DNA of 64,000 nt from Bacteroidia bacterium (GTDB lineage Bacteria > Bacteroidota > Bacteroidia > SpSt-205). The stretch lies in NCBI GenBank assembly GCA_026003215.1, contig BPGV01000001.1, positions 1,178,466-1,242,465 of the forward strand, given 5' to 3'. The notes beneath the pieces were generated by a model. That model was not told the DNA's origin. It ran no database searches and worked only from the letters and a program-made list of their open reading frames with translations. Of the stretch, positions 5,389-57,319 are shown one piece after another (the stretch's first letter is position 1; the number at the start of each line of letters is the position of its first letter). Made by a program: the position numbers and the translations under genes.

Positions 5389-6273
5389 TTACTCCTCCTC
5401 TTCTTTGTCTTTTTTAGACTTTTTACGCTCCTTTTTATCGGGCTTAGGGGGTTCTTGGGGAGCGGGAGCTGTTTTTTGGGTTTCTTCTTGTGGGGCTACG
5501 TCGGCTTTTTCTTTCTTTTTGCGTTCCTTTTTGGGTTCAGCGGCTGGGGCAGCGGGGATAGGGGAAGGCGCGCTTTCGGACTTAGGCTTCACATACCCAA
5601 AGCCTAAGGAGAAACGAAGGTAGCCGCCACTCAGTTGTGCGGGATTGACGCCGGCGGGATCGGGTCCCTCCGAAGCCTTCCAGCTTCCCTTGGAGGGCGC
5701 AAATACGGCGCCTAAGTCGGCCCCCCATACTAATGTCACGCCTTCGCCTCGTTTGAGGCGCCGCAGCCCTAAGCCTACTTCCACCAGCCCTAAGTTGCTG
5801 GAAAAAGTACGCTTTTCCAGCGGACGCAACTGCTGGTTGGTCCCAAAGTATATGGGTTCGGTAAAGTAGTTGGTATAGCGCACCTCGTAGGTGCCCACTT
5901 GATAGCCTATATACGGGTAAAACAGCCAGAGGTTTTTATTGATAGCGGCGAAGCCGAGTTGGCCGCCATAATGGAGGGCATATGGCCGGGCTAACCCCCG
6001 CTCGGTTTCAGAAGCATCGTAATGCTGGAGCTGGAGGGTGCCCGCCACAAGAAAGCGTTTGGCTATAAGCAGGTCCAGGTTAGCGCCGGCGGTGGTGGCC
6101 CAAGGCACCATTTTGAGGTCTTTACCTAAGGCGTTAGGGGCTTTGAGATCATTCTGGAGCTTACCGAAAAAGCCCAGCCCGACCCCACTATGCGCACGCA
6201 GGAGGAGGCCAAAGTTTACGGGTTCTTCTTGCGCCCAGAGGAGCGCCCCTAAGAGAAGCACGCACTTGCGCAT
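5389..6273 (-). CDS. outer-membrane beta-barrel protein with a C-terminal Lys/Glu/Pro-rich tail
   Basis: Signal peptide MRKCVLLLGALLWAQ, read from an internal ATG at 6273. The body has alternating aromatic/Gly strands. The last ~70 aa are KKERKKKEK...EEEE. Confidence 0.5.
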   Translation of the reverse strand: MRKCVLLLGALLWAQEEPVNFGLLLRAHSGVGLGFFGKLQNDLKAPNALGKDLKMVPWATTAGANLDLLIAKRFLVAGTLQLQHYDASETERGLARPYALHYGGQLGFAAINKNLWLFYPYIGYQVGTYEVRYTNYFTEPIYFGTNQQLRPLEKRTFSSNLGLVEVGLGLRRLKRGEGVTLVWGADLGAVFAPSKGSWKASEGPDPAGVNPAQLSGGYLRFSLGFGYVKPKSESAPSPIPAAPAAEPKKERKKKEKADVAPQEETQKTAPAPQEPPKPDKKERKKSKKDKEEEE

Positions 6274-6302
6274 CAGACAAAGGTAAGCAAAAACTTTACC
6301 GC

Positions 6303-6896
6303 TCACTCTACACTCAAGGGAATATGTATGCTTTCTCTTTTTACCTGCATGTACATCTCTATCCATGCCACAACCCTAGAACCTAACTCAGTTAGCACCA
6401 CTCTATCATAGGCGCTTGCCAAATATATCCTATGAATAAGCCCCAGTTCCTCACACCAACTGGACGTAAATCTGATAAACTTACAAAATACGCTCCACTT
6501 ATACCTCTTCTTAAGCAGTGTAAGTCCCAACATCCAATAACTATATTCCATAGTATCCGGAGGCGGGCTTGGCCTATTAGCAGGAACGGCTCGAGGAATC
6601 CATTCCCCGTTCGTAAGCCGACAAAAAAGCAGAAATAAGTAAATGTTCGACTTAAGGCCAGTAATCGTACCATTCAGCAACACCTCTAGGAGTATTCGCT
6701 TCTGCTCCAAACTCAATTCCTGTTCTCTAGAAGGAAGCATAGGCAAAGCAGCTTGCATAAATCTTCTACCATAATCGGTCAATATATAGCGAGATCCTTC
6801 TTTGGCAGTGAGTTCAAACTCCCTTGAAAGTGTATAGTATACCCTAAAATTTGTACCTATAGACGAAAACCTTCTGGCCGGGGGTGGAGCCTCCAA
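6303..6896 (-). CDS. hypothetical protein, second gene of the low-GC island
   Basis: 197-codon ORF in DNA of about 35-40% GC, where random ORFs should be short. Same strand as its neighbours. It overlaps the upstream island ORF by 40 nt. Confidence 0.45.
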   Translation of the reverse strand: MEAPPPARRFSSIGTNFRVYYTLSREFELTAKEGSRYILTDYGRRFMQAALPMLPSREQELSLEQKRILLEVLLNGTITGLKSNIYLFLLFCRLTNGEWIPRAVPANRPSPPPDTMEYSYWMLGLTLLKKRYKWSVFCKFIRFTSSWCEELGLIHRIYLASAYDRVVLTELGSRVVAWIEMYMQVKRESIHIPLSVE

Positions 6897-7453
6897 AAAG
6901 TCGTTTTCACTAAGTAATCTCTGTCATAAACCCTAAATATGTTGGTTATCCTATTTAACCATCTCAGATGTGTGATATCCATAGCCTTAGACGGTTCGAG
7001 TATAAGACCGACATGCCTCTCCAATTCTTCAACTTGTTTATGATACATAAGAATCACTTTATCGTAGCTATACTCCACCAGCTTAATATTTCTAAGCTTA
7101 GTAAAATGCAAACGAATTTTTTCTATGAGTTTAGGATACGAAACATCTGAATATAGAATAACTATGTCACGTTCATAATGCGGATTCAAGGATATTTTTG
7201 CATAGCGCTCGACTTGGGTAATCACAAAGGTAGCTTGTTGTACGCTACGTATGGCCACTTCAAGCTCAACAATAATGTACTTTTTCGATTCTACATCTTC
7301 TAAAATAAAATCTACTACACCGTGCTTTGTTCTATACTGCTCTGCAAAAGTTACGAGTTTTGGTGAGCAACCTAATGGTCTTAATAAGTTCGTGAGATAT
7401 GACCGTTCTCTAAGAAGAGTCCACTGAATGAGACGCTCGGAAAGGAAGCTCAT
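6857..7453 (-). CDS. hypothetical protein, first gene of the low-GC island; possible PD-(D/E)xK-like motif
   Basis: 198-codon ORF with AT-rich codon usage. Its ATG overlaps the purE TGA (ATGA). It contains [21 protein letters not shown], a D...E-x-K arrangement on predicted beta strands. Confidence 0.5.
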
Positions 7454-7968
7454 GGAATGAAATTAGTGAACCTATCAGCCTCTTCTAAAAGAGGACGCAA
7501 TGCTTCGTCATGGAGCTTCTTTTGGTAAGCTTCCAGGCGCTCTTGCAGAGGGGGTTCTTGGAGGGCCAGGATGCGCACCGCCAAAAGCGCCGCATTCGCC
7601 GCATTGTCTATCGCCACGGTGGCCACAGGTACCCCTTTCGGCATCTGCACAATAGATAACAGCGAGTCCAAGCCCTGAAATGACTGGCTGGAGCGGATAG
7701 GCACCCCTATCACTGGCAGCGTAGTGAGGGAAGCGAGCATGCCAGGGAGATGCGCAGCCCCCCCCGCCCCCGCAATAAGCACCCGCAAGCCCCGGGCCAC
7801 AGCCCCCTTACCATACGCCCACAGCCGATCCGGCGTACGATGCGCCGACACAATCGTAAACTCATAGGGCACCCCAAACTCTTCCAGCACCGTGCGCGCC
7901 CCTTCCATGACCGCCGCATCGCTCGCACTGCCCATGACGATACCCACCCATGGCTTCATGGAGGGCAA
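7450..7968 (-). CDS. purE: N5-carboxyaminoimidazole ribonucleotide mutase
   Basis: Motifs GIVMGSASD...[10 protein letters not shown]...TLPVIGVP match PurE. Confidence 0.9.
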
Positions 7969-7997: not shown

Positions 7998-8513
7998 CTA
8001 TTGAAGCGGTATAGAAAAGCGTTCAGAAGTACGCCTAAGCACCCCTTCCTGTTCTATCGAGCCTTTCTTCTCCCCTACCCGAAACTTCATCAACAACTCA
8101 TACTTCATCTCTCCCGCCGAACGTAGCTTCCCTTCCATCTTAAAGTCTGTAAGCTCCACGTCTCCTTTCGCCAAAAGCCCCAGAAATCCTATAATCATCG
8201 CAAATCGCTCCTTCGTCTCCTCCTCTACATGGAAGCGGCGCCCCCGAATATTCGCCGGCATGGGTAAGTCGTTATAAAAAACTAATAGGGGCCTTTCTTC
8301 TTTCCCCTTCTCCTTTTCCTCATCTAAGGGGTTGGGCATTATGGAAAGCTTTATTTGCTTCTTTGCGGTTTCTTTCGTGCCGTCTGGCTTTTGCGTAGTC
8401 ACTTCAACCTCGCCCTCCCATGTGCCAGCAAACTCTATCGGCTCTGCCCTCCTTTCCAATAACGTACATCCCCAAAGGGATACACCTAAACCCCATACTA
8501 ATAAGTACCGCAT
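7998..8513 (-). CDS. hypothetical lipoprotein, paralogous to the C-terminal domain of the downstream DCC-fusion protein
   Basis: Signal peptide and lipobox [16 protein letters not shown], read from the internal ATG at 8513. It shares a G[TV]WEG[ER]V motif with the 8611..9735 product. Confidence 0.45.
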
Positions 8514-8610
8514 AGACCAAAGGTAGAAAAACCTTTCGCTATTATACACTACGAGAACTCCCTTCTATCCACAGTCATGCATACTAAACTCCCTACGCCT
8601 ACACCTCCGA

Positions 8611-9735
8611 CTAATCTAATCCGTCTTCCGCCTCCCAAGAAGAGCCTTCCTCCCTGATATAATCATAAGGGTTCTTATCTGCTTGTAAAGTGAGCGCGCC
8701 TTCCTCTTCATAAAAGCCCTCTTCACCCCGAACTTCAAAGAATATAGAGCGTTTATAGCACATCTTCCCTTTGCCTACCAGCTCGCCAGTTACCTTTCTA
8801 CTCTTTAGCTTAAAGCCCACCTTCTGCGCAAAAATGCGCATAACTTCGTTCTCTTTGTCCTTTTCACCTGGTAAGGTCTGTGTTTTTCCTTGCGCAGAGT
8901 CCTTAGCGAGCTCCTCGATAGCCATAAGGGCCACCCCAAACATCATACCCATCAGAGCCTCAGCCCGTTTTTCAGGGGGATTAACGAGAATGAGCGCCTC
9001 CAACGGAGTCCCCAACATCCGTACTGAGTCGGGCCTCTCTGCCCACCGCTGCCCCTCCACCCGAGCTCGCAAATGGGTCTTGAACTCAAACTCATCGGTA
9101 TCTCCCGTGTCTGCCGGAGCATTTGTCTCTATAAGGGTCACCTGCAAAAAGTTCTCTTTGGGCGAAACCGTATCCGCAACGATTACCACTCGCATAAAAT
9201 AAGTATAGTCGTGTACGCTGCTCTCGCCGGGCGGTTTTGCCTTGGCAAAGACACGCCCTTCCCATACCCCAAAAAACTTCGTTGGGTCGGCCTTTTGGCC
9301 TGCACATGGGGAAAAGAGCCCTCCAAGGAGGAATATCCCCAAAATACCCCCTACGAAAAGGGGCCGCCTCCTAAAAGTGTAGCCTAATCCTTGCACAGGG
9401 CCGCGTTTGCCCTGGAGACAGAGCCGCCGACGAGCTACCCAGGTGTACATATGCTCACGCCACCGCCGAGGGATAAGCCCTAAAAGCATGGCCAACAGCG
9501 GCCACCCATAGCCCGCATCCCGTAGCGCCTCTCGTAGGGCTTCACTTCCTACAAAAAACTGCCCTGCTCGCTCATAGATAACCGCATCTACGGGTACGGG
9601 CAGCCGCGTCAAATCCGTATAATCTGTGGGTACCCAGGTTATGCGCCCAGGAACGGTACGCCGCCCAAAGGCCCGGGCCAACCTCCGGCATAAGGAACAG
9701 TTTTGGTCATAGTACAAGCGCCCTCCACCAGCCAT
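8611..9735 (-). CDS. DCC1-like thiol-disulfide oxidoreductase (DUF393) fused to a membrane-anchored/lipoprotein-like domain
   Basis: N-terminus YYDQNCSLCRR...WVARRR is a DCC family motif. It is followed by a hydrophobic segment ending in SPC and a ~230-aa domain that resembles the 7998..8513 product. Confidence 0.5.
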   Translation of the reverse strand: MAGGGRLYYDQNCSLCRRLARAFGRRTVPGRITWVPTDYTDLTRLPVPVDAVIYERAGQFFVGSEALREALRDAGYGWPLLAMLLGLIPRRWREHMYTWVARRRLCLQGKRGPVQGLGYTFRRRPLFVGGILGIFLLGGLFSPCAGQKADPTKFFGVWEGRVFAKAKPPGESSVHDYTYFMRVVIVADTVSPKENFLQVTLIETNAPADTGDTDEFEFKTHLRARVEGQRWAERPDSVRMLGTPLEALILVNPPEKRAEALMGMMFGVALMAIEELAKDSAQGKTQTLPGEKDKENEVMRIFAQKVGFKLKSRKVTGELVGKGKMCYKRSIFFEVRGEEGFYEEEGALTLQADKNPYDYIREEGSSWEAEDGLD

Positions 9736-9764
9736 CTTGCGAAGATACGTTTTATTTTGCCTGC

Positions 9765-10343
9765 GTGTGCACCCCTGAAAGGTTGGCTCGCATCCGAGCC
9801 GTCTTAGCCAAGCGCCAGCCGGACCTAACCCTCTTCTTAGAGAAGGTACATAAGCCCCATAACCTGTCCGCTATTTTACGCACCTGCGATGCTGTGGGTG
9901 TGTGGGAAGTACATGCGGTCTTTCCAGAAGGACGCGTGCCCACCTATAACGAAACCAGCGCCGGCAGCGAAAAGTGGGTGCCTGTACACACGCATCCCTC
10001 TATCCAAGCGGCATGCGCCTATTTGCGTAAAAAGGGGTTTCGGCTCTATGCCACCGCGCTGCGCCCCGAAGCCGTGGATTTTCGGGCGCTGGATTACACG
10101 CAGCCTACGGCGTTTATCCTGGGCGCGGAATACTACGGGATCTCGGAGGAAACCTTAGCGGAGGCCGATGCGCTTATCCGCATCCCTATGTACGGGATGG
10201 TCCAGAGTCTGAATGTGTCGGTAGCGGCAGCGGTGCTCTTGTATGAGGCGCAGCGGCAGCGTGCTGCAGCCGGTTTCTATGATGCCCCACGTCTCTCTCC
10301 TGCCGAGCTGGAAGAAGCCTTTGAACGGTGGTGCAGCCTCTAA
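9765..10343 (+). CDS. TrmH/SpoU-family RNA 2'-O-methyltransferase
   Basis: Motif HKPHNLSAILRTCDAVGV and a C-terminal SPOUT knot region (LNVSVAAAVLLYE). Confidence 0.8.
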   Translation: MCTPERLARIRAVLAKRQPDLTLFLEKVHKPHNLSAILRTCDAVGVWEVHAVFPEGRVPTYNETSAGSEKWVPVHTHPSIQAACAYLRKKGFRLYATALRPEAVDFRALDYTQPTAFILGAEYYGISEETLAEADALIRIPMYGMVQSLNVSVAAAVLLYEAQRQRAAAGFYDAPRLSPAELEEAFERWCSL

Positions 10344-17655: not shown

Positions 17656-19602
17656 ATGCGAGTAAAAAATCGGATAGGGCTGGGCTTAGCCCTTTTAGCA
17701 GGGATAGCCTGCGGCCCCAAAGACCTTATCAACAAAACCAAATACGGCGGGAAAAAGTACGTCAACACCTGTGAGACCTTCAAAAAAGAAGTGCAAGCTA
17801 CCCTTGACGCAAACAACGACCCCGCCACCCTCCGCATAAGTGAGTACGATAATAGCCAGTTTGACCCCACCTTCGTGGAGCCAGGGCAGTTTCTCCAAGC
17901 AAACGATACCCTATATTTCCGTCTGGCCAATGACTTGGAATATGCCAAGTACCTGCAAAAAGGTGTGGCTATTATTGTGCGGGTAGATTATACCACCCCT
18001 GCCCATTTAGCCAATATGGAAAAAGATCCTCAAGGTACCGTTGGGGAGCTTATCATCACAGAAAGCTACTACAAAGCCAACTCGCAGCCCTTCTTTATTT
18101 ATAAGATCCCACTGGGCGGCAGAAAGTTAGACGGGAAGCAAGTCTCGTTGTACTTTTCTGTGGTAAAGTTAGATAAAAAGGGGAAGGTAGTCAAGGTATA
18201 CTGCGACTCACGCAATAAACCTTTTGGACCTGCCGATCCGCCTTGTTGTACTTCGCAGCCATGGGCGCGGGTGCACACAGGCATAAAAGCGGCGTTGCCA
18301 GACCTCCCCATTCGGGATGAGCAATACCGCTATGAGGGATTTGAAGGGACCTTGGACCTCATCTTCCCCATTATGTCCACCAAGTTCAATAAAAAAGAGC
18401 TCACCGATGCTATCCTTCAGTATGTAGCCAAATATGAACAAATGGGCTATCTGGTGCAAAGCATCAAGATTGAGGGGTATGCTTCGCCGGATGGACGGCT
18501 GGAGCTTAACCAGAAGCTCTCCCAAGGCCGGATGGAAGCTGTAGTAGAAGACCTCAAAGAACACTTTGTGAAAAAGATGGGGCGAGATATTCCGATGGAG
18601 GGCATAGGCCGCGGAGAAGACTGGCAACGTTTTGATATACTGGTAAAAACGGCTGACTTTACCGATGAGGAACGGGGACAAATCCTCCAAATAGCGGCTC
18701 AGCCTATCCATGAAGACGATCGCGAAAAGCAACTCCGCAAGCTGCCTTACTGGCCTAAAATCCGCGAAAAAGTACTACCCTTTTGCCGCCATGCCCTGGT
18801 TACTTTTACCTTTACCTACCAACCCGATAAAATGTATGTAGAACGCTACAATGCAGCCCTTCCGCTCTTAGCCCCAGAACTCTATAACATCGCCACTAAA
18901 ACTTTTATCATAAGTCGCTTCCGTCCTGGGGTCAATGCGCGCCAAAATCTTTCTATTCTGAATACCCTCATAGATACCCGGGGCAATCACACCGCTAACC
19001 TCTTGGCCATGCGCTCTACGTATCACTTCGCGCTGAGTGACCTCAAAAGCGCTGTCCGGGACATAGAGGCCGCCGCCGCCTTGGATAAAAATAACCCCAC
19101 CTATAGCCTCGCAGCACTGGCCTATCGTACCCAAGGTATCCAAGAGCTCTCACGCGAGGAAGCCATGCAAATGTTAGAGCGGTATAACGACCTCATCGCG
19201 CGCACTCCGAATGACCGTTCCCTCTACATCAACCGCGCTATCGTGATGGATTATGTGGGCTGGCTCTCGGGCGCTATCGCAGACAATACCAAGGTTATCT
19301 CCGAAGAAGGGCGGCTCGCTATCGCCTACAATAACCGCGGCGTTTCGCTCATGAAAGCTATGCGCCTCCTGGAAGCCGAAGCCGACTTCTTACAGGCTGT
19401 CTCTATTGACCCCAACTTAGCTGAAGCCCACTTTAACTTAGGCTTACTCTACGCGTATAAGGGATATCCCGACAAGGCCGCCCAAAGCTTAGAACGAGCC
19501 TTTACGCTCCAACCCGCCTTCCGGAGCGAGCTGAACGCTAATCCGGTCTTCCGGGTGGTACGCGACCACCCCCGCTTCGGGAAGTTTTCTACGGGTGGGT
19601 GA
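17656..19602 (+). CDS. lipoprotein with a central OmpA/MotB-like domain and C-terminal TPR repeats
   Basis: Lipobox LLAGIACG. A degenerate OmpA-like motif IEGYASPDGRLELNQKLSQGRMEAVV. TPR-like AEAHFNLGLLYAYKGYPDKA. Confidence 0.55.
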   Translation: MRVKNRIGLGLALLAGIACGPKDLINKTKYGGKKYVNTCETFKKEVQATLDANNDPATLRISEYDNSQFDPTFVEPGQFLQANDTLYFRLANDLEYAKYLQKGVAIIVRVDYTTPAHLANMEKDPQGTVGELIITESYYKANSQPFFIYKIPLGGRKLDGKQVSLYFSVVKLDKKGKVVKVYCDSRNKPFGPADPPCCTSQPWARVHTGIKAALPDLPIRDEQYRYEGFEGTLDLIFPIMSTKFNKKELTDAILQYVAKYEQMGYLVQSIKIEGYASPDGRLELNQKLSQGRMEAVVEDLKEHFVKKMGRDIPMEGIGRGEDWQRFDILVKTADFTDEERGQILQIAAQPIHEDDREKQLRKLPYWPKIREKVLPFCRHALVTFTFTYQPDKMYVERYNAALPLLAPELYNIATKTFIISRFRPGVNARQNLSILNTLIDTRGNHTANLLAMRSTYHFALSDLKSAVRDIEAAAALDKNNPTYSLAALAYRTQGIQELSREEAMQMLERYNDLIARTPNDRSLYINRAIVMDYVGWLSGAIADNTKVISEEGRLAIAYNNRGVSLMKAMRLLEAEADFLQAVSIDPNLAEAHFNLGLLYAYKGYPDKAAQSLERAFTLQPAFRSELNANPVFRVVRDHPRFGKFSTGG

Positions 19603-24557: not shown

Positions 24558-26270
24558 TTAGAGAGAGAAAGAAGCCGAACGGGACAGCTGATAGCGAAAT
24601 CCTATAATCAAGATATCATCTGTTTGCGGAATATCTCCCTTCCATTCACGCAAGCGCTGCTCCAAAACCTTGCTTTGTTCGTGGAGGGGCAAGCGATGCA
24701 CCTCATCTATAAGCTCATAGAAGCGCCGCGTACCCATGCGGGGGCGTTCTTGGCCTTCTTGGTCCGGGTAGCCGTCCGAGAATAGGAAAAACATATCCCC
24801 TGGCTGGGGGCGGATACGATGAGACTGAAAAGGTACATTTCTGAAGAGTTCGGGGTCATCGGCGATAGCGCGGGGCGTAGGCGGTATTTCCTGTCTTTGT
24901 CCTCCGCTATAATGGAGCACAGGACGCTTAGCCCCTGCGACAAATACCTCGCCACTCTGAAGGTCTATCTGCACAACAGCCATCTCGGCGCCATCTTGGA
25001 TGACCTCGCCTTGGGATTGGGATTGGAGCTTCTCTCGCACTTGCGCATCTACCACTTGCAAGATCCCGGCCGGGTCAGATACGCCCATTTCATTGACGGC
25101 GTAGCTAAGCGCATTGCTTACCAGCACACTCATGAAAGCCCCCGGAACCCCATGCCCCGTGCAGTCCACAGCCGCCAAATAAACATAACGGCCTCCTTGC
25201 TCACTAAACCAGTAAAAATCTCCGCTAACCACCGCTTTTGGTAGATACAGAATAAAGCTTTCGGGCAAGTGATAGCGAATAATCTCTTCGCTGGGTATGA
25301 GAGCTCGTTGTATGCGCCGGGCGTAAGCGATGCTATCCTCCAGTTCCTTTTTCTGCTCTAAGATGGTGTGATAAAGAGCGGCATTTTCCAAGGATATGGC
25401 CAACTGGCTGGTAAGAGTTTGCAAAGTATTTTGTATTTCACGCTGCTCCCGCAGAAAATCTACAACCTCGCTGCGCTCAAGCACGACATATCCTAAGTCT
25501 CTGGCACTTTGTTGGAGTCGGATGGGTGCGACGAGTATGTTCGCATTTTCCTCCAGCATGGTCTGCTCAATAGCTTCTTGGATTTCCACACGCAGTTGGC
25601 GGGCTTTTTCGGGGTCGGCGTATGCGTCTAAGACCTGTACTTGTATTTTTTTGGCATAGGCGCTTAGGGCATTAGCCATAGCTTGGAGGCTTATACCTTG
25701 CTGAGGATAATCTATGGCGATTTTCGCCGAAGTGAAGCCTACCGTTTCCGCCAGACTTTCAAAATACTTTTCTATGAGCTTATTAATCTCCCGCTCACCG
25801 GAGAGTTTTTGGGTGAGGTTATTGATATCCCGCAGGAGGCGTGTGTACATTTGCAAGCGGATTTTTTGGAGGTAGGCTTCGGCGGCTTCTTCCACGGTAA
25901 GCATGAGGTCATCTTCGCGCCAAGGCTTCATGACATAGCGATAGAGGCGCGCGTGGTTGATAGCGTTTCGCACTGCATCTAAGGTAGCTTGCCCAGTGAG
26001 CAAAATCTTATAGGCTTCGGGGACTTTTTTATGCGCAGCGATAAGAAACTCATCCCCTTTCAGGCCGGGCATGAGCTGGTCAGAAATGATTACCGCTATA
26101 TCCTGATTGTCCGTTTGAATCTCCTCTATCAGTTCCAACGCCTCCTCGCCTCCTTGGGCTACCTCACACTCAAAGCGCTCACCTAACCGATTAAGGACCT
26201 GCTCCTGTAGGCTATCTAAGATGATTTTTTCATCATCTACGCAGAGGATTACAGGCTTCTTGATAGGCAT
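24558..26270 (-). CDS. response-regulator receiver domain fused to a PP2C/SpoIIE-type serine phosphatase
   Basis: N-terminal REC domain (ILCVDDE...ISDQLMP...KPW). The C-terminal motifs GDFYW...DCTGHGVPGA are PP2C metal-binding motifs. Confidence 0.8.
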   Translation of the reverse strand: MPIKKPVILCVDDEKIILDSLQEQVLNRLGERFECEVAQGGEEALELIEEIQTDNQDIAVIISDQLMPGLKGDEFLIAAHKKVPEAYKILLTGQATLDAVRNAINHARLYRYVMKPWREDDLMLTVEEAAEAYLQKIRLQMYTRLLRDINNLTQKLSGEREINKLIEKYFESLAETVGFTSAKIAIDYPQQGISLQAMANALSAYAKKIQVQVLDAYADPEKARQLRVEIQEAIEQTMLEENANILVAPIRLQQSARDLGYVVLERSEVVDFLREQREIQNTLQTLTSQLAISLENAALYHTILEQKKELEDSIAYARRIQRALIPSEEIIRYHLPESFILYLPKAVVSGDFYWFSEQGGRYVYLAAVDCTGHGVPGAFMSVLVSNALSYAVNEMGVSDPAGILQVVDAQVREKLQSQSQGEVIQDGAEMAVVQIDLQSGEVFVAGAKRPVLHYSGGQRQEIPPTPRAIADDPELFRNVPFQSHRIRPQPGDMFFLFSDGYPDQEGQERPRMGTRRFYELIDEVHRLPLHEQSKVLEQRLREWKGDIPQTDDILIIGFRYQLSRSASFSL

Positions 26271-26279
26271 AGCGTAGGC

Positions 26280-26696
26280 TTAAGCAAGCCCGAGTTTTTT
26301 TAGGGCGTTATTGACATAGTTGATGAGGTCTTCTTCACGCCAAGGCTTACGAATATAGGCATAGAGGTTAGCATTTTGGAAGGCATTTTCCACGGCTTCG
26401 GGGTCCGCTTGGCCGGTAAGCATGATAGTGACCGTTTCGGGATACTTTTGGTGCAGCTCAATCAAGAAGGTATCCCCTTTCACCCGGGGCATCAGCCAGT
26501 CCGAAATGACCAATACCATCTCATAGCCCTGCGATACGAGGTCTTCAATCACTTCCCAGGCTTCATCCACGCTCTCGGCAATCTCGTATTCAAACTGATC
26601 GCCAAAAGTAGCCCGAAGCTGCTCCTGCAAGCTGTCTAATACAATTTTTTCATCATCCACGCAGAGAATGGCTCGCTTGACTTTCTTCTCTTCCAT
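26280..26696 (-). CDS. stand-alone response-regulator receiver (REC) protein
   Basis: 138 aa covering a REC domain only. It is highly similar, in both protein and DNA, to the REC domain of the adjacent PP2C gene. Confidence 0.8.
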   Translation of the reverse strand: MEEKKVKRAILCVDDEKIVLDSLQEQLRATFGDQFEYEIAESVDEAWEVIEDLVSQGYEMVLVISDWLMPRVKGDTFLIELHQKYPETVTIMLTGQADPEAVENAFQNANLYAYIRKPWREEDLINYVNNALKKLGLA

Positions 26697-26700
26697 AAGC

Positions 26701-29700
26701 TTATTGGGTTTGTTGTAAGGTTTCTTTAGAAGAAATTACGGATTCAAAAGGCGTCTTTATAGGCAATCGCACATAAAAAGTCGTTTTTCCTGGCTCACTT
26801 TCAAAATAAATGCGGCCACCATGCTTTTCTACGATCCGGCGGGATATATCTAAGCCCAATCCGGTCCCTTCACCGGCCGGCTTAGTGGTAAAGAAAGCTT
26901 CAAAGATTTTATCTTGGATTTCTTTCGGGATACCGGGGCCAGAGTCCGTGAAGCTGGCAATAATATCATCTCCTTCGCGCCACACACGTATATGCAAAGA
27001 ACCCTTTCCTTGCATCGCTTGGATAGCGTTGGAAATAATATTTGTCCATACCTGGGAGAGTTGGTCCGGCACCCCTAAGATTTGGGGTAGGTCCGATTCA
27101 TATTCCTTAGTCACTTCAATCCCATATTTGAGCTGGTTGTGATAAATAATAAGCACCGTATCTATGGTGTCAGGGACACTTAGGTATTCGGGCTTTTCTT
27201 CTGTACCCTTGCGAGCGTATGATTTGAGGGCATACACAATCTTTTGGGTTTTATTGACAGCCAGCTCAATATTATCCGCATTAAGGCGAAGCTTACCGAT
27301 ATTCCCAGCCATCTCTATGATAAAATCGGCCTTAGGATGCTTGAGAAGCGGAAGAAACGGCTCCAGCCCTTCAAATAGCCCGATTTTGACCAGCGATTGC
27401 GCTATGGTAGAAGCATTTGGCACACCTTGCTGCTCTAACCATTCGGTGACCTGGCGTCGATATTGCCGCTCCTCCCGAGAAGTAAGAGAACCTGTAAAAC
27501 CAAGCGTGCGTTCCGTCATCTGGTGAAAAAGGGGAGCCAAATCCCCAAGCACTCGTATAAGCTCGGGATATTGTTGCAGCGTATGCGGGAGGCTCTTCGA
27601 TATATTAGTAGCTGCTGCACTAATAGCACCGATAGGTGTATTTATTTCATGGGCGACACCGGCGATAAGCTGACCTAAAGCCGCCATTTTCTCGGATTGA
27701 ATGAGCTGTTGTTGCGTATTTTTTAGGTCTTCGTACGCTTGTTCTAAGTCTTTTTTAGCAGCTTCCAGTTGTTTATAGCTTTGTTGGAGCTCGGCGGTAC
27801 GGGCGCGCACTACGGCTTCCAGCTCTCGGTTACGCGCTTCTAAGCGAGCAGCATTCAGCCGAATAAGCGCAAAGACCAAAAACACAGCCAATACCCCATA
27901 CGAAATATAGGCCCATACCGTACGCCACCAGGGGGGCAGTACAGTGAACGCATACTTAGCTGAGCTGGCCTCTAACCCCAAAGGCGAGAGGGCCTGCACT
28001 TCCAAAGTGTATTTACCCTCCGACAGATCCGAAAAGGGAATAGCTGCCCCTGCTTCCAAATAACTCCATTCCTTTTCCTTCCCCCCTTCAATCAATCTAT
28101 ACCGAAAGGTAGTGGCATTGAGTCCGCCGTACGGGTCCACCCACCCAATAAGCAACCGTCCCGAAGCCAACGTATAGGGCACCTCCGGTATGAAGGGTTG
28201 AGCCACTGCAAGGGCCGCCTCCTCTGGCGAAAAAGCCCGCCCGCCCCATAAAAGAGAGTCTTCCCCTAAGATAGCAGCCCTCACCAAAGTCGGCGGTACC
28301 ACTGGAGCATCCAGCGTAAGGGAACCCACAATGAGTTCGTCTTTATAGGCTGCCCATACGGCTTTACCTTCGGTATATAGCACATCGGGGCGCCGGCCTA
28401 TGGCATTTAGGGTAAGCGGCCTCCCCCCTAAGAGGGGCGATAAAGCGTAGCCCTCCTCAGCCTGAGCCAGCACCCGCACCCCCACCCGTAGCCGAACCAA
28501 CGACACGGACCCCGCGCGACTTATCTGGTCTATCCGTTCCCCCCCTAAAAGGCTATTTAGCGTAGGAAAAGGCTCAAACTTGCCGGTCCCTTCACGGTAT
28601 ACCAACAAGGACTGCCCGCCTTGCGCAAAAATACGCCCATCCACTTCGCCCACATAATAGTTGGCCTTTTCTAAGCCGAGCGCCTCGGGATCAGCCAGCA
28701 CCTCCCCCGTAGCCCTATTTAGGCGAAATACCCCCGTAGAGGTACCTATCCAAAGGTTATCGCCTTCCTCTACTAAGCTTTGCACGTCTTTTTCATAGAG
28801 GGTAGCGACTTCTTTCCAGCGCCCACTTTCATATTGCAACTGTACTAACCCCCTGCGGCCAAAAGCATACGCCTGCGTAGGGCTCTGGGCCGAAGCACGT
28901 ATCCCTACAAAAGGTTTATTGGTGATTAGAGGCACCGCCACACCGCCCCGTACTTCATATAACCCTTGCGAACTGGCCACCAGCAGGTGATCCTTAAGCA
29001 CCGCTAATCGCCAACATTCTCCTTGGAGCCCTTGAACCCGCTGCGCACGCTTCTCCCCGGGAGTAAGACGGAAGATTCCCTGCACAGTCGTGACATAAAT
29101 CTCCTTATCTCGGGGCAAAATATCGGTAATTTTTCCTTCTATCCCTTTGGCCGCAGTATAACTCCGCAAAGGAAGGGCTAAAAGCACCTGCGTAAGGCCC
29201 CGACCATGCGACACCCACGCGTTGCCATAGACATCCCGAAAGACCGCATAAATATCGTCGTCGGGGAAACCCTCTGCCCTACTCCACCGATCTACTTGGC
29301 GTCCTTTTGCATCAATCACGACACACCCCCCATTAAGTGTGCCTATCAAAAGATTTTCTCCCAAAGAAAGAATTCGGTATATCCGGTTATCTCGCAGATA
29401 GTTTTCCGCGGCGGTTTTGAAAGGAAGGAAGCTGGAACCTTTCCCCTCATAAAGGGTTCCGTCAAAAGTAGCAACGATTACCACAGAACCCAGTTCGGCG
29501 ATACCACTGACATCTTTCTCATCAAAAAGCTGGCCGCCCGGTAGGGGTATAAACCCACTACGGGTCACCTTGTGCAGCCCGCCTTTGCCGCGGAGATTAG
29601 CCCATACTTCGCCTCGAGCAATCCCCGACCCCGTGAGAAAAGCGCCTTCTCCCACCAAAAAAGCCCGCGGCGCTACCGCAAGCACACTGCCATCTACCAA

Positions 29701-54799: not shown

Positions 54800-56711
54800 C
54801 GAGATACGGAAGGCCTATAAGGAGGATTTTCCAATCTAAGAGCACCGAATACCGATACGCATACATCAGGTCTATGCTAAATATGTGCGGATAGTGCTCC
54901 CGTAAAAGGTCTGTGGTGAGCACCCCTTCTTTGAGGAGAGGCATTTCTTCCGACGGAAACTCGCTATAACTTACAAAATGATAACGCCCCAGGAGCACAC
55001 CTATCAGGCTCCTCAGGGCTGCAATAGGGGCATGATACACCCAAAAAGTAAAGGGATACGCTAAAAGCAGAAATACTCCAGCAGCCAAATCAAATATTTT
55101 CTTTTGGAAAAGCACTTCCGGCTGATGCAGACGTAAGTATAAACGTACGGAGTTTCGGCTTACCAAGATGCTCTGGGGACCGATGAGATAATCAGCATAC
55201 GGGGGAATAATCTTGAAACTGAGCTTGCGGTAGAAGTAGCGCATCATGAGCGAGATAATCTCCTGGGAAGTAAGGCTTGCATTACAAAAGATGAGTTCAT
55301 CGGGGTTATATCGGTCTAAGAGGTAGGGGAGCTGAACGGGTGTGCCTATGGCCTCTTTATGCGGGCGCGGGCTGACAAAGCCCAAAAACTCGGCAGGATA
55401 GCGGATATCTTCAAATAAGAGCTTGCGCAAGCGGGCAAACTGGGTGGGCTCTGCTACGACAAGCACCCGATGCGAAAGGTCCCCAGTAAGGTGCAGGCGT
55501 CCTTTCCGAAGCCAGTTGTCTAAGGCCCGCACCGAAAGGGCAATAGGCACTGCCGCCACCGCCATGCTTAGCACCATAAAGCGTGAGACATTGATAGAAG
55601 GGAAGAGGTAGCTCACCACTACGATAAGCAGCAACCCTACCAATACAGCCCCCGCTATGCGGCGAATACGATAAGGCGGCGCATAGTTAAGAAAAAGTAT
55701 ATGAGCGAGTACAAAAGCAGCGGCATACCCTAACAAAGCCCATATTTCATAGTAGGGAAAGAAGCTTTTTCCCGAAAAATCCCGCCAAAAGTGAAACAAA
55801 GCAAGCCCTACTCCATACAGAGCGGCCCCCTCTACAATCGGTAGATAAATGTGCTGGAGCACACGCTTGAAAGCCGAAAAGACGCCCGCCGAAATAATCC
55901 CTATCTGATATAAGAAAGCCGCAGGCCAACGGCGCAGACCTTTGTAGTGTTTTTGCACAAACTGTAAAGATGCTTTATAAAAAGTAAGGACGTAGTTGAG
56001 CGAACGGGTCTTGGTACTTTCCCCTTTGAAGTGGATAATCTGCGTGGTAGGCAAGTAATAGTTTTTATAACCAGCCTGCAAGATGCGATAACATAAATCT
56101 ATATCTTCGGCATACATGAAGAAACGCTCATCTAAGAGGCCCACCTCTTCCAATACCCGGCGTGGTATGCACATAAACGCCCCTAAAAGCACCGGCACCT
56201 CGGCTATTTCATCTTCGGGTAGATAGGTAAAGTGATACCGACCCAAAAGACGACTTTTTGGGAAAAGTCTATAAAGGCCACTGAGCTTACAGAATATATT
56301 CCATGCAGAAGGAAGATCCCTACGCGAGTCCACAGAAAAACGACCTTGACCATCTATGATTTTTACTCCCACAGCTCCAGCTTCCGGATGTGCTTCTAAG
56401 AAACGAATGACCTCCCGAAAGGTATCCTCCTGCACGATAGTATCGGGGTTGAGCAGCAGGATATACTTCCCCTGAGCTAAGCGAATAGCTTGATTATTTG
56501 CCCGGGCAAAGCCCAGATTAATTTCATTAGCGATGACCTTGACCCAGGGGAACTCTTCCCGCACCATCTCCATGCTCCCATCTATAGAGGCGTTATCTAC
56601 CACCCATACTTCGCCATTTAGCCCTTCTAAGGCCCGCGCCACCGATTGCAAGCACTGCCGCAAAAAGTACTTGACATTATAGCTGACGATGATGACCGAG
56701 ATATCTATCAT
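54777..56711 (-). CDS. glycosyltransferase family 2 with a large C-terminal membrane domain
   Basis: ISVIIVSYN...VVDNASIDGS plus a DXD motif, then about 8 predicted TM helices. Confidence 0.8.
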   Translation of the reverse strand: MIDISVIIVSYNVKYFLRQCLQSVARALEGLNGEVWVVDNASIDGSMEMVREEFPWVKVIANEINLGFARANNQAIRLAQGKYILLLNPDTIVQEDTFREVIRFLEAHPEAGAVGVKIIDGQGRFSVDSRRDLPSAWNIFCKLSGLYRLFPKSRLLGRYHFTYLPEDEIAEVPVLLGAFMCIPRRVLEEVGLLDERFFMYAEDIDLCYRILQAGYKNYYLPTTQIIHFKGESTKTRSLNYVLTFYKASLQFVQKHYKGLRRWPAAFLYQIGIISAGVFSAFKRVLQHIYLPIVEGAALYGVGLALFHFWRDFSGKSFFPYYEIWALLGYAAAFVLAHILFLNYAPPYRIRRIAGAVLVGLLLIVVVSYLFPSINVSRFMVLSMAVAAVPIALSVRALDNWLRKGRLHLTGDLSHRVLVVAEPTQFARLRKLLFEDIRYPAEFLGFVSPRPHKEAIGTPVQLPYLLDRYNPDELIFCNASLTSQEIISLMMRYFYRKLSFKIIPPYADYLIGPQSILVSRNSVRLYLRLHQPEVLFQKKIFDLAAGVFLLLAYPFTFWVYHAPIAALRSLIGVLLGRYHFVSYSEFPSEEMPLLKEGVLTTDLLREHYPHIFSIDLMYAYRYSVLLDWKILLIGLPYLGALRKQK

Positions 56712-57319
56712 ACCGAGAAGGGTTGGCGTTCACGCAGAGAACGGGAAAGGGTGAGTGGGTCTACGTATTCCAAGTCACTGCCGACAGGGATGCCGCTGGC
56801 AAAACGAGTGATGCGCCCGGGCCAATCTGCCAGCTGTCGGGCAATATAGTAGGCGGTAGTTTCGGCTTCTGGGCTGGTCCCCAAGGCTAAGATGACCTCT
56901 TGATACCCGTCACGGCGCAGGCGGTCCCAGAGTGGAGCTAAGCGCAGGTCTTTTTCTTGAATGCCTGCCAGCGGGTCTAATACCCCCCCTAAAACATGAT
57001 ACCGTCCGCGAAAAGCCTGGCTGCGTTCTATGGCCAGCACATCGCCCGCCTCCTTGACTACACAGAGGATAGGCTCGTCTCGGGCAGGGTCAGCGCAAAT
57101 AGCACATACGGGCTGGGGGCCTTCTGCCCAAAAACCACAGTAGGTGCAAGGGGCTACCTTCTCCACTACTTGGGTCAGGGCTTCTGCAAGCTGGACTTGG
57201 AGGGTAGGCTGGCGTAATAGCGATTGAAGTATCCGTAGTGCACTCCGCGGGCCTATGCCCGGAAGCTTCTCTAAAAGCTCACGCAACGCCTCTACGGGTG
57301 CGGGAAGCACTGTAGCCAT
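56708..57319 (-). CDS. recR: recombination protein RecR
   Basis: Helix-hairpin-helix LPGIGPRSALR, a C4 zinc finger CTYCG...CAIC, and a Toprim domain. Confidence 0.85.
   Translation of the reverse strand: MATVLPAPVEALRELLEKLPGIGPRSALRILQSLLRQPTLQVQLAEALTQVVEKVAPCTYCGFWAEGPQPVCAICADPARDEPILCVVKEAGDVLAIERSQAFRGRYHVLGGVLDPLAGIQEKDLRLAPLWDRLRRDGYQEVILALGTSPEAETTAYYIARQLADWPGRITRFASGIPVGSDLEYVDPLTLSRSLRERQPFSV

Follow-up and report, generated by a model that had tools for sequence, protein, structure and literature searches.

The DNA considered here is a 64-kb window (64,000 nucleotides of contig BPGV01000001.1, assembly GCA_026003215.1) from a member of the Bacteroidia, and the subject is an AT-rich island that lies in it between purE and a gene encoding an outer membrane protein-like (OMP-like) product. 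As delimited by GC content and by GC content at third codon positions (GC3), this island, on no particular strand, extends approximately from position 6290 to position 7480. GC is 0.32-0.45 over this interval versus 0.52-0.66 in the flanks, with a mean of 0.553 for the window as a whole, so that the abrupt drop between purE and the OMP-like gene described in the original prediction is confirmed. Two open reading frames (ORFs) of 198 and 197 codons, overlapping by 40 nt on the minus strand, had been described in the same interval; they are found exactly there, and strong homologs exist for both. ORF1 (6857..7453, minus strand; 198 aa; GC 0.382, GC3 0.367) has an ATG start and is followed by ORF2, listed as a 197-aa frame with a TTG start (6303..6896, minus strand; GC 0.431, GC3 0.429) and open over 6303..6923. 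Upstream of ORF1 is purE (PF00731 match, E 2e-64; GC 0.595, GC3 0.653), whose stop at 7450 overlaps the start of ORF1 in an ATGA that can be read from the sequence (7450..7453, minus strand), while the OMP-like gene (5389-6273, minus strand; GC 0.553, GC3 0.597; most plausible start at 6273) lies directly downstream of ORF2. The upper edge of the island falls within the final ~25 nt of purE and the lower edge shortly past the stop of ORF2.

Contrary to the initial view of two genes arranged like an operon, ORF1 and ORF2 are two halves of a single gene, referred to below as X, of which they form the 5' and 3' fragments, respectively. When ORF1 was used as a single-sequence query, only its own entry was matched, i.e., the protein N3A68_06915 of a Bacteroidia metagenome-assembled genome. 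ORF2 retrieved nine homologs, the longer of which extend N-terminally and match the C-terminal half of ORF1; in one locus (L007), a separately called upstream ORF of 89 aa matches the N-terminus of ORF1. The family was thus reached via ORF2, and a profile search was then run from a frame-repaired alignment. It retrieved 108 proteins; in about 95 of them, one chain of 360-420 aa spans 98-99 % of the joined ORF1 and ORF2, with 28-41 % identity. Likewise, among the homologs found at 80 loci of reference genomes, X is uninterrupted in 73, whereas the window copy is interrupted. A hidden Markov model (HMM) of X, with ~366 positions, gives two matches in the window, in different frames: profile positions 1-177 correspond to 6896-7444 and positions 169-365 to 6309-6905, the two matches overlapping at positions 169-177. 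Since both halves have strong homologs, these open frames are not due to chance.

The frameshift zone was placed at 6895..6910 (minus strand) by direct reading of the junction, by the overlap of the HMM matches, by the alignment of homologs and by the presence of the same shift in five assemblies. At the junction, the frame of ORF2, open from 6923, is -1 relative to that of ORF1, and the last 13 amino acids of ORF1 are out of frame. Adding a single base, either in a run of five T (6895-6899) or in a run of four A (6904-6907), restores an ORF of 383-385 aa; the alignment of homologs slightly favours the A run as the repair site (between ...DYLVK and NDFLEAPPP...). The position of the shift in such short homopolymer runs could evoke an error of sequencing or assembly in a gene that is in truth intact, but this is the least credible of all the explanations considered: the same frameshift is present in five assemblies obtained from different samples (L001-L005; NCBI, JGI and three Logan runs), and the 1.36-kb region that includes it is 100 % identical across them, with a single mismatch in one assembly. 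Moreover, the usual sequencing platforms do not tend to err in runs of 4-5 bases.

The -1 relation of the two frames, the T5 run located exactly at their overlap and the fixation of the allele in all samples also bring to mind a programmed -1 ribosomal frameshift at ...ACU UUU UGG..., which would yield full-length X. This is nevertheless very unlikely. The sequence U UUU UGG departs from the canonical X XXY YYZ heptamer since, by an established rule, tRNA-Trp cannot re-pair in the -1 frame. The 84 nt downstream of the site fold less stably than shuffled sequences (z = +1.28), and a scan of positions 6000-7800 against Rfam gave no match, leaving no Rfam element to assist such an event. Finally, the ~95 full-length homologs use one frame, and the few other disrupted copies of X are broken at another site or in another direction.

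Sequence families give few clues about the function of X: at E values up to 1, neither ORF matches a family of Pfam or of PADLOC-DB 2.0, and the only NCBIfam match is a sub-threshold one to NucS (NF003270; 15.3 bits for a cutoff of 216), limited to the C-terminal nuclease part of that family. A search of PDB sequences with the X-family profile returned nothing below E 0.35. The AlphaFold2 model of the frame-repaired protein, built from 67 sequences, is more informative, with a predicted local distance difference test score (pLDDT) of 91.6 and a predicted template modelling score (pTM) of 0.80. In this model, ORF1 carries a NucS-like nuclease domain of the PD-(D/E)xK type, with a restriction endonuclease-like alpha/beta core, followed by a helical linker, while the C-terminal part of X is predicted to be a FokI-like tandem winged-helix DNA-recognition module. 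Residues 191-200 of the linker are modelled with low confidence (pLDDT 64), and ORF2 modelled alone gives a compact fold (pLDDT 88.5).

The N-terminal signature of the family reads G-x-(I/V)-D48-F ... (I/V)-E63-L-E65-T ... K73 ... Q80-x-x-x-Y84, in which a PD-(D/E)xK motif of the D/ExE form precedes a QxxxY motif of the RecB/NucS type, with K73 located eight residues after E65. An ExE motif also occurs in BamHI. In the alignment of 67 sequences (A3), E63, E65, Q80 and Y84 are invariant and D48 is at least 90 % conserved. In the window, this putative active site spans 7202..7312 on the minus strand (D48, 7310-7312; E63, 7265-7267; E65, 7259-7261; Q80-x-x-x-Y84, 7202-7216). T66 and K73, almost invariant in the family, are replaced by V and Q in the window copy. 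A PD-(D/E)xK nuclease had been anticipated for ORF1 on the basis of a D...E-x-K pattern; the predicted structure agrees with the fold, and D48 (in VVDF) was correctly picked, but the proposed triplet E55-S56-K57 falls in a variable loop (reading 'NDG' in L007) and is not conserved in A3, the invariant acidic pair being E63-L-E65 in 'IVELEV'. As for ORF2, in which a cysteine-containing C-terminal part had been pointed out, the tandem winged-helix module is a better description, and the C331-x-x-C334 pair of the family is only half kept in the window copy (C331S).

The X family is small, with 107 cluster representatives among 1.84 billion at E values up to 1e-3, and its members, normally of 360-385 aa, are scattered patchily over phyla of both bacteria and archaea. 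It is covered by no model of Pfam, NCBIfam or PADLOC, and a tblastn search with an intact member found no match in the plasmid and phage collections. The C-terminal module is also found alone, in three proteins of ~195-235 aa with a Met start (P0139, P0152 and P0146), and at the C-terminus of a 643-aa protein (P0173) whose N-terminal region is unrelated; it thereby looks like an independently mobile DNA-recognition module.

The genomic context of X was surveyed at the 80 reference loci by scanning the immediate neighbours with Pfam. Two families stand out: of the 112 upstream ORFs, 29 match N6_N4_Mtase (PF01555), and of the 138 downstream ORFs, 28 match RE_MjaI (PF09568). Every other family occurs five times at most. 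Clustering and alignment resolved the downstream partner into two entities, a small conserved protein of 92-105 aa (Y) and an MjaI-like nuclease of ~175 aa (R); fusion forms had merged the two into one cluster, and the neighbours were re-annotated with separate custom HMMs. The typical cassette thus consists, on one strand, of an N4/N6 methyltransferase gene (M), X, Y and the MjaI-type R, and adjacent genes usually overlap by 1-4 nt. Y follows X in 32 of the 80 loci, has no Pfam match and displays the motif YDRFTFDxLFRxLL...NCALS...QERIYN (e.g., at 9095-9373 in L061 and at 9095-9373 in L046); in L038, L048 and L022, Y and the MjaI-like nuclease form a single fused protein. MjaI itself is an experimentally active CTAG enzyme, the Methanocaldococcus jannaschii protein being reported active when cloned (PMC2615612), and M.MjaI makes N4-methylcytosine (PMC11033074). 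In other words, the families of the MjaI/MthZI CTAG systems (PF09568 and PF01555) flank X in its canonical cassettes, PF09568 matching the downstream neighbour of X and not X itself, while X is an additional, previously undescribed gene between M and R that belongs to neither family. The fold and anatomy predicted for X, together with this context, indicate that the family most probably consists of sequence-directed DNA endonucleases or nickases.

The loci of one X subfamily depart from this organization. In L007 (337-3412), an N6_N4 methyltransferase stands on either side of X, a signature reminiscent of Type IIS systems, and a 62-aa ORF lies in between; in L008 (952-2013), X is followed by a 62-aa ORF and a C5 methyltransferase (PF00145), and in L010 and L012 another gene, of more than 318 aa, is found downstream of X. 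From L007 and L008, X had first been taken for the Type II restriction enzyme itself, paired with M, a reading dropped in view of the MjaI-like gene present downstream of X in most cassettes.

X is the most durable part of these cassettes: M and R decay while X usually stays intact. Over the 80 loci, X is intact in 73 and fragmented or split in 5. M, by comparison, is full-length in 12, fragmented in 36 and absent in 21 of the 69 assessable loci, and the MjaI-like R is full-length in 22, fragmented in 18 and absent in 36 of 76; Y is full-length in 32, fragmented in 1 and absent in 44. Only 5 loci have complete M, X and R, and X is intact without a full M and without a full R in 34. Capnocytophaga (truncated M, X and a 62-aa ORF) and L097 (truncated M, X and truncated MjaI-like gene) conform to this picture. 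X is nonetheless under purifying selection in lineages where M and R have decayed, with ratios of non-synonymous to synonymous substitution rates (dN/dS) of 0.10 in the X-Y loci of Planctomycetota, 0.11-0.24 in Cloacimonadota and 0.08-0.17 in the Armatimonadota/Anaerolineae group, the nearest to the window copy. The same is true of Y (dN/dS 0.11), even where R is gone.

Two further features of these loci are worth mentioning. In Planctomycetota (L046, L057 and L061, and also L070), X and Y are embedded in a conserved housekeeping neighbourhood, in the order aminotransferase, ornithine carbamoyltransferase, X, Y and a Ham1/RdgB-like gene, which suggests vertical inheritance of a domesticated X-Y module. 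Besides, in several phyla a remnant corresponding to the first ~48 residues of an N6_N4 methyltransferase is found 15-60 nt upstream of an intact X (L017-L020, L028, L036, L038, L041, L048, L054, L064 and L066); this remnant may be kept for a promoter or 5' region that drives X.

The predicted architecture of X resembles that of several characterized enzymes, but coincides with none of them. Compared to the NucS/EndoMS mismatch endonuclease (PDB 2vld, 5gke), X is without the NucS N-terminal domain, which is absent from the AlphaFold2 model, has an ExE motif in place of ExK, adds the tandem winged-helix module, and is found in restriction-modification (R-M) cassettes and not in repair contexts. 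With FokI-like Type IIS enzymes, the model of X shares a recognition domain made of several winged helices, and it bears a structural resemblance to the nickase N.BspD6I. However, relative to FokI, N.BspD6I and PaqCI, the order of the domains is reversed in X, where the nuclease is N-terminal; this nuclease resembles NucS more than FokI, no similarity exists at the sequence level, and X cassettes usually include a single M. Heterodimeric Type IIS enzymes such as BspD6I, BsrDI and BtsI, in which a large subunit carries out recognition and nicking and a small one is catalytic (PMC1950550, PMC3017599), provide another point of comparison. A heterodimeric arrangement of this kind for X is an attractive model because of the tight linkage of X, (Y) and the MjaI-like gene, of the Y-R fusions and of the resemblance to N.BspD6I, and it would explain why X survives the loss of the methyltransferase. 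In contrast to these heterodimers, the partner of X comes from a different family than the small subunit of BspD6I, and MjaI is reported active when cloned (PMC2615612). A more developed version of this model, which is conceivable but should be taken as tentative, would make X an undescribed "reverse-FokI" restriction component, with Y as an adaptor and the MjaI-type protein as catalytic subunit, that would stay useful alone after decay of M and of the small nuclease, e.g., as a nickase or as a stand-alone defence or repair nuclease. This would explain the purifying selection at the 34 loci without full M and full R, and the linker split of the window copy could even be a viable two-chain form.

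How does the window copy fit in this picture? Its low GC and GC3, the absence of X in a relative and the patchy spread of the family point to a foreign origin, as had been proposed when the island was first described. The relative in question (L093), the only one found, has an orthologous OMP-like protein 81 % identical to that of the window and the same OMP-mrp-nifU order; a msrA gene at normal GC lies upstream of its OMP-like gene, with no X there. The X insert is thus not conserved in the lineage of the window genome, although the neighbourhood is rearranged in L093, which is therefore not a clean empty site. Around the island, searches for flanking repeats gave only short matches at chance level and no insertion scars, no tRNA was found within 20 kb, and promoter and terminator searches yielded nothing above chance. 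The 4-nt overlap between purE and X is of the kind usually seen at the M-X junction of complete cassettes. The last ~25 nt of purE (7453-7480, minus strand; ...RFTNFIP) are already AT-rich, and the acquired DNA may encode the C-terminal tail of PurE, which would then be what is left of the 3' end of an M gene joined to purE.

The partners of X are missing from the window: the M, Y and R HMMs have no match in its 64 kb, and the best tblastn match in a search for remnants has an E value of 0.047. This bears directly on the proposal that a nuclease and a partner form an intact two-gene cassette for defence, abortive infection or toxin immunity. The low GC, the nuclease fold of ORF1 and the overlapping ORFs would fit such a cassette, but it is highly improbable given that in all relatives a single protein contains ORF1 and ORF2 as its collinear halves, that neither matches PADLOC, and that the true partners of the family are not there. 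What stands of this proposal is the link of the family to a defence context, that of R-M cassettes, and not the two-gene, toxin-immunity or abortive-infection module. An active defence function of X in the window genome is likewise unlikely, because the usual partners are missing and the copy shows signs of decay.

These signs are the following. Among the 57 columns that are at least 85 % conserved in the family, the window copy departs at 8 (V9I, T66V, K73Q, T106Y, R276L, T322V, C331S and L369M), whereas its 12 nearest homologs depart at 0-2 of the same columns. It also lies on a long branch, with a mean identity to the outgroup of 0.325 versus 0.37-0.45 for these 12 homologs. Altogether, the island probably contains a solitary X gene that was acquired recently by horizontal transfer, was inactivated by the loss of 1 nt from the linker between its two domains and is now drifting, i.e., a likely pseudogene, and the window copy has most likely lost its function. 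In this scenario, an X gene would have landed between purE and the OMP-like gene without any partner; the deletion, by changing the frame by -1 in the linker, would have parted the nuclease domain (ORF1) from the recognition module (ORF2); substitutions would then have accumulated at conserved sites, and DNA would no longer be cleaved specifically. There are precedents for such a fate among R-M systems, as HindVP and several Hpy genes are among the frameshifted R genes listed as inactive (PMC2615612). Like orphan R-M genes, the window copy is a horizontally acquired nuclease gene with a frameshift in a homopolymer run and no cognate methyltransferase; it differs from the rest of its family, where M and R usually decay and X stays intact, in being the less common case of a broken X.

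Several observations nonetheless weigh against a pseudogene. Both halves are fully open, with no further stops, and 49 of the 57 conserved columns are kept, including the core catalytic residues D48, E63, E65, Q80 and Y84. The break falls exactly in the low-confidence linker, at a domain border, so each half could fold alone. The split allele is fixed in every sample seen. In addition, X is under purifying selection elsewhere without M and R (dN/dS 0.08-0.24), and its solitary state alone is therefore not evidence of death, while the long branch could come from a deep, unsampled subfamily and not from relaxed constraint.

Accordingly, the alternative that deserves most attention at this locus is a functional split gene, in which the nuclease subunit encoded by ORF1 and the recognition subunit encoded by ORF2 would associate non-covalently and still work. 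Beyond the position of the break, the open halves and the retained catalytic residues, this would be in line with the compact fold predicted for ORF2 alone, with the pTM of the full model, which suggests a defined interface between the domains, with the existence of stand-alone C-terminal modules (see above), and with the divided labour of heterodimeric Type IIS enzymes (PMC1950550). Nearby disruptions of X in L006, L098 and P0134 can also be invoked. As a whole, the disruptions of X cluster at three places of the profile, ~65-73 (L007, L060), ~88-106 (L090, L092) and ~154-177, the latter group comprising, besides the window copy, a stop at ~154 in L098, a split at ~175 in L006, the end of P0134 at 174 and a deletion edge in P0122. 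This clustering is borderline at best (~p = 0.04 by a rough hand estimate) and could reflect A/T runs that are prone to mutation, or domain borders at which breaks are tolerated. However, the L006 copy has lost its nuclease domain as well and is clearly decayed, and the shift there is a +1 one, opposite to that of the window copy, so no mechanism is shared. Furthermore, the sole start of ORF2 is a TTG, and as the ORF1 stop lies 40 nt further downstream, there is no stop-start coupling; substitutions are in excess at conserved sites of the window copy; and 73 of 80 homologs are unsplit. A functional split is thus unlikely, and a decayed gene is the preferred explanation.

Differences between strains were also recorded around the island. 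They gather at 9-10 kb and in the OMP-like gene, which is hypervariable, especially over 5442-6148: when the window is compared with L001-L003 over 17.4 kb, this gene alone accounts for 45 of ~81 differences. This gene has no Pfam match and encodes a low-complexity tail rich in Lys, Glu and Pro; its variability could be due to diversifying selection on a surface protein, or to recombination. A second cluster, with 24 mismatches in 1 kb, lies at 9000-10000, in or near an ORF of 374 aa (8611..9735, minus strand) with a DCC1-like N-terminus and a C-terminus without assignment. The absence of polymorphism in X among strains had raised the idea of a recent sweep, which was rejected, as the background amounts to ~1 difference per kb or less and the differences are concentrated elsewhere.

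Other parts of the window also deviate in composition. The region 7998-9735 (minus strand) has a moderately low GC (0.45-0.49 at 8000-8900) and contains two ORFs without Pfam family that share a similar segment, one reading FFGVWEGRVFAK..., and that may correspond to paralogous lipoprotein-like domains. The 1-kb bins in 18000-19000, 26000-28000 and 55000-57000, with GC of 0.47-0.50 versus the window mean, may be further segments of foreign origin or special composition.

In conclusion, the locus contains one foreign, broken gene without partners, to be annotated as a frameshifted pseudogene; in itself, it is an ordinary case of a decayed, horizontally transferred gene. The family to which it gives access is less ordinary: these unannotated nucleases are a variant of the restriction type and persist in an unusual way, and their confidently predicted domain combination is new and occurs inside MjaI-type (CTAG) R-M cassettes in both bacteria and archaea. 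If X truly nicks DNA site-specifically, or serves as a large subunit of a new Type IIS-like kind, it would represent a new restriction-enzyme architecture, possibly useful as a reagent, and would bear on how R-M cassettes decay and on which of their parts become domesticated.

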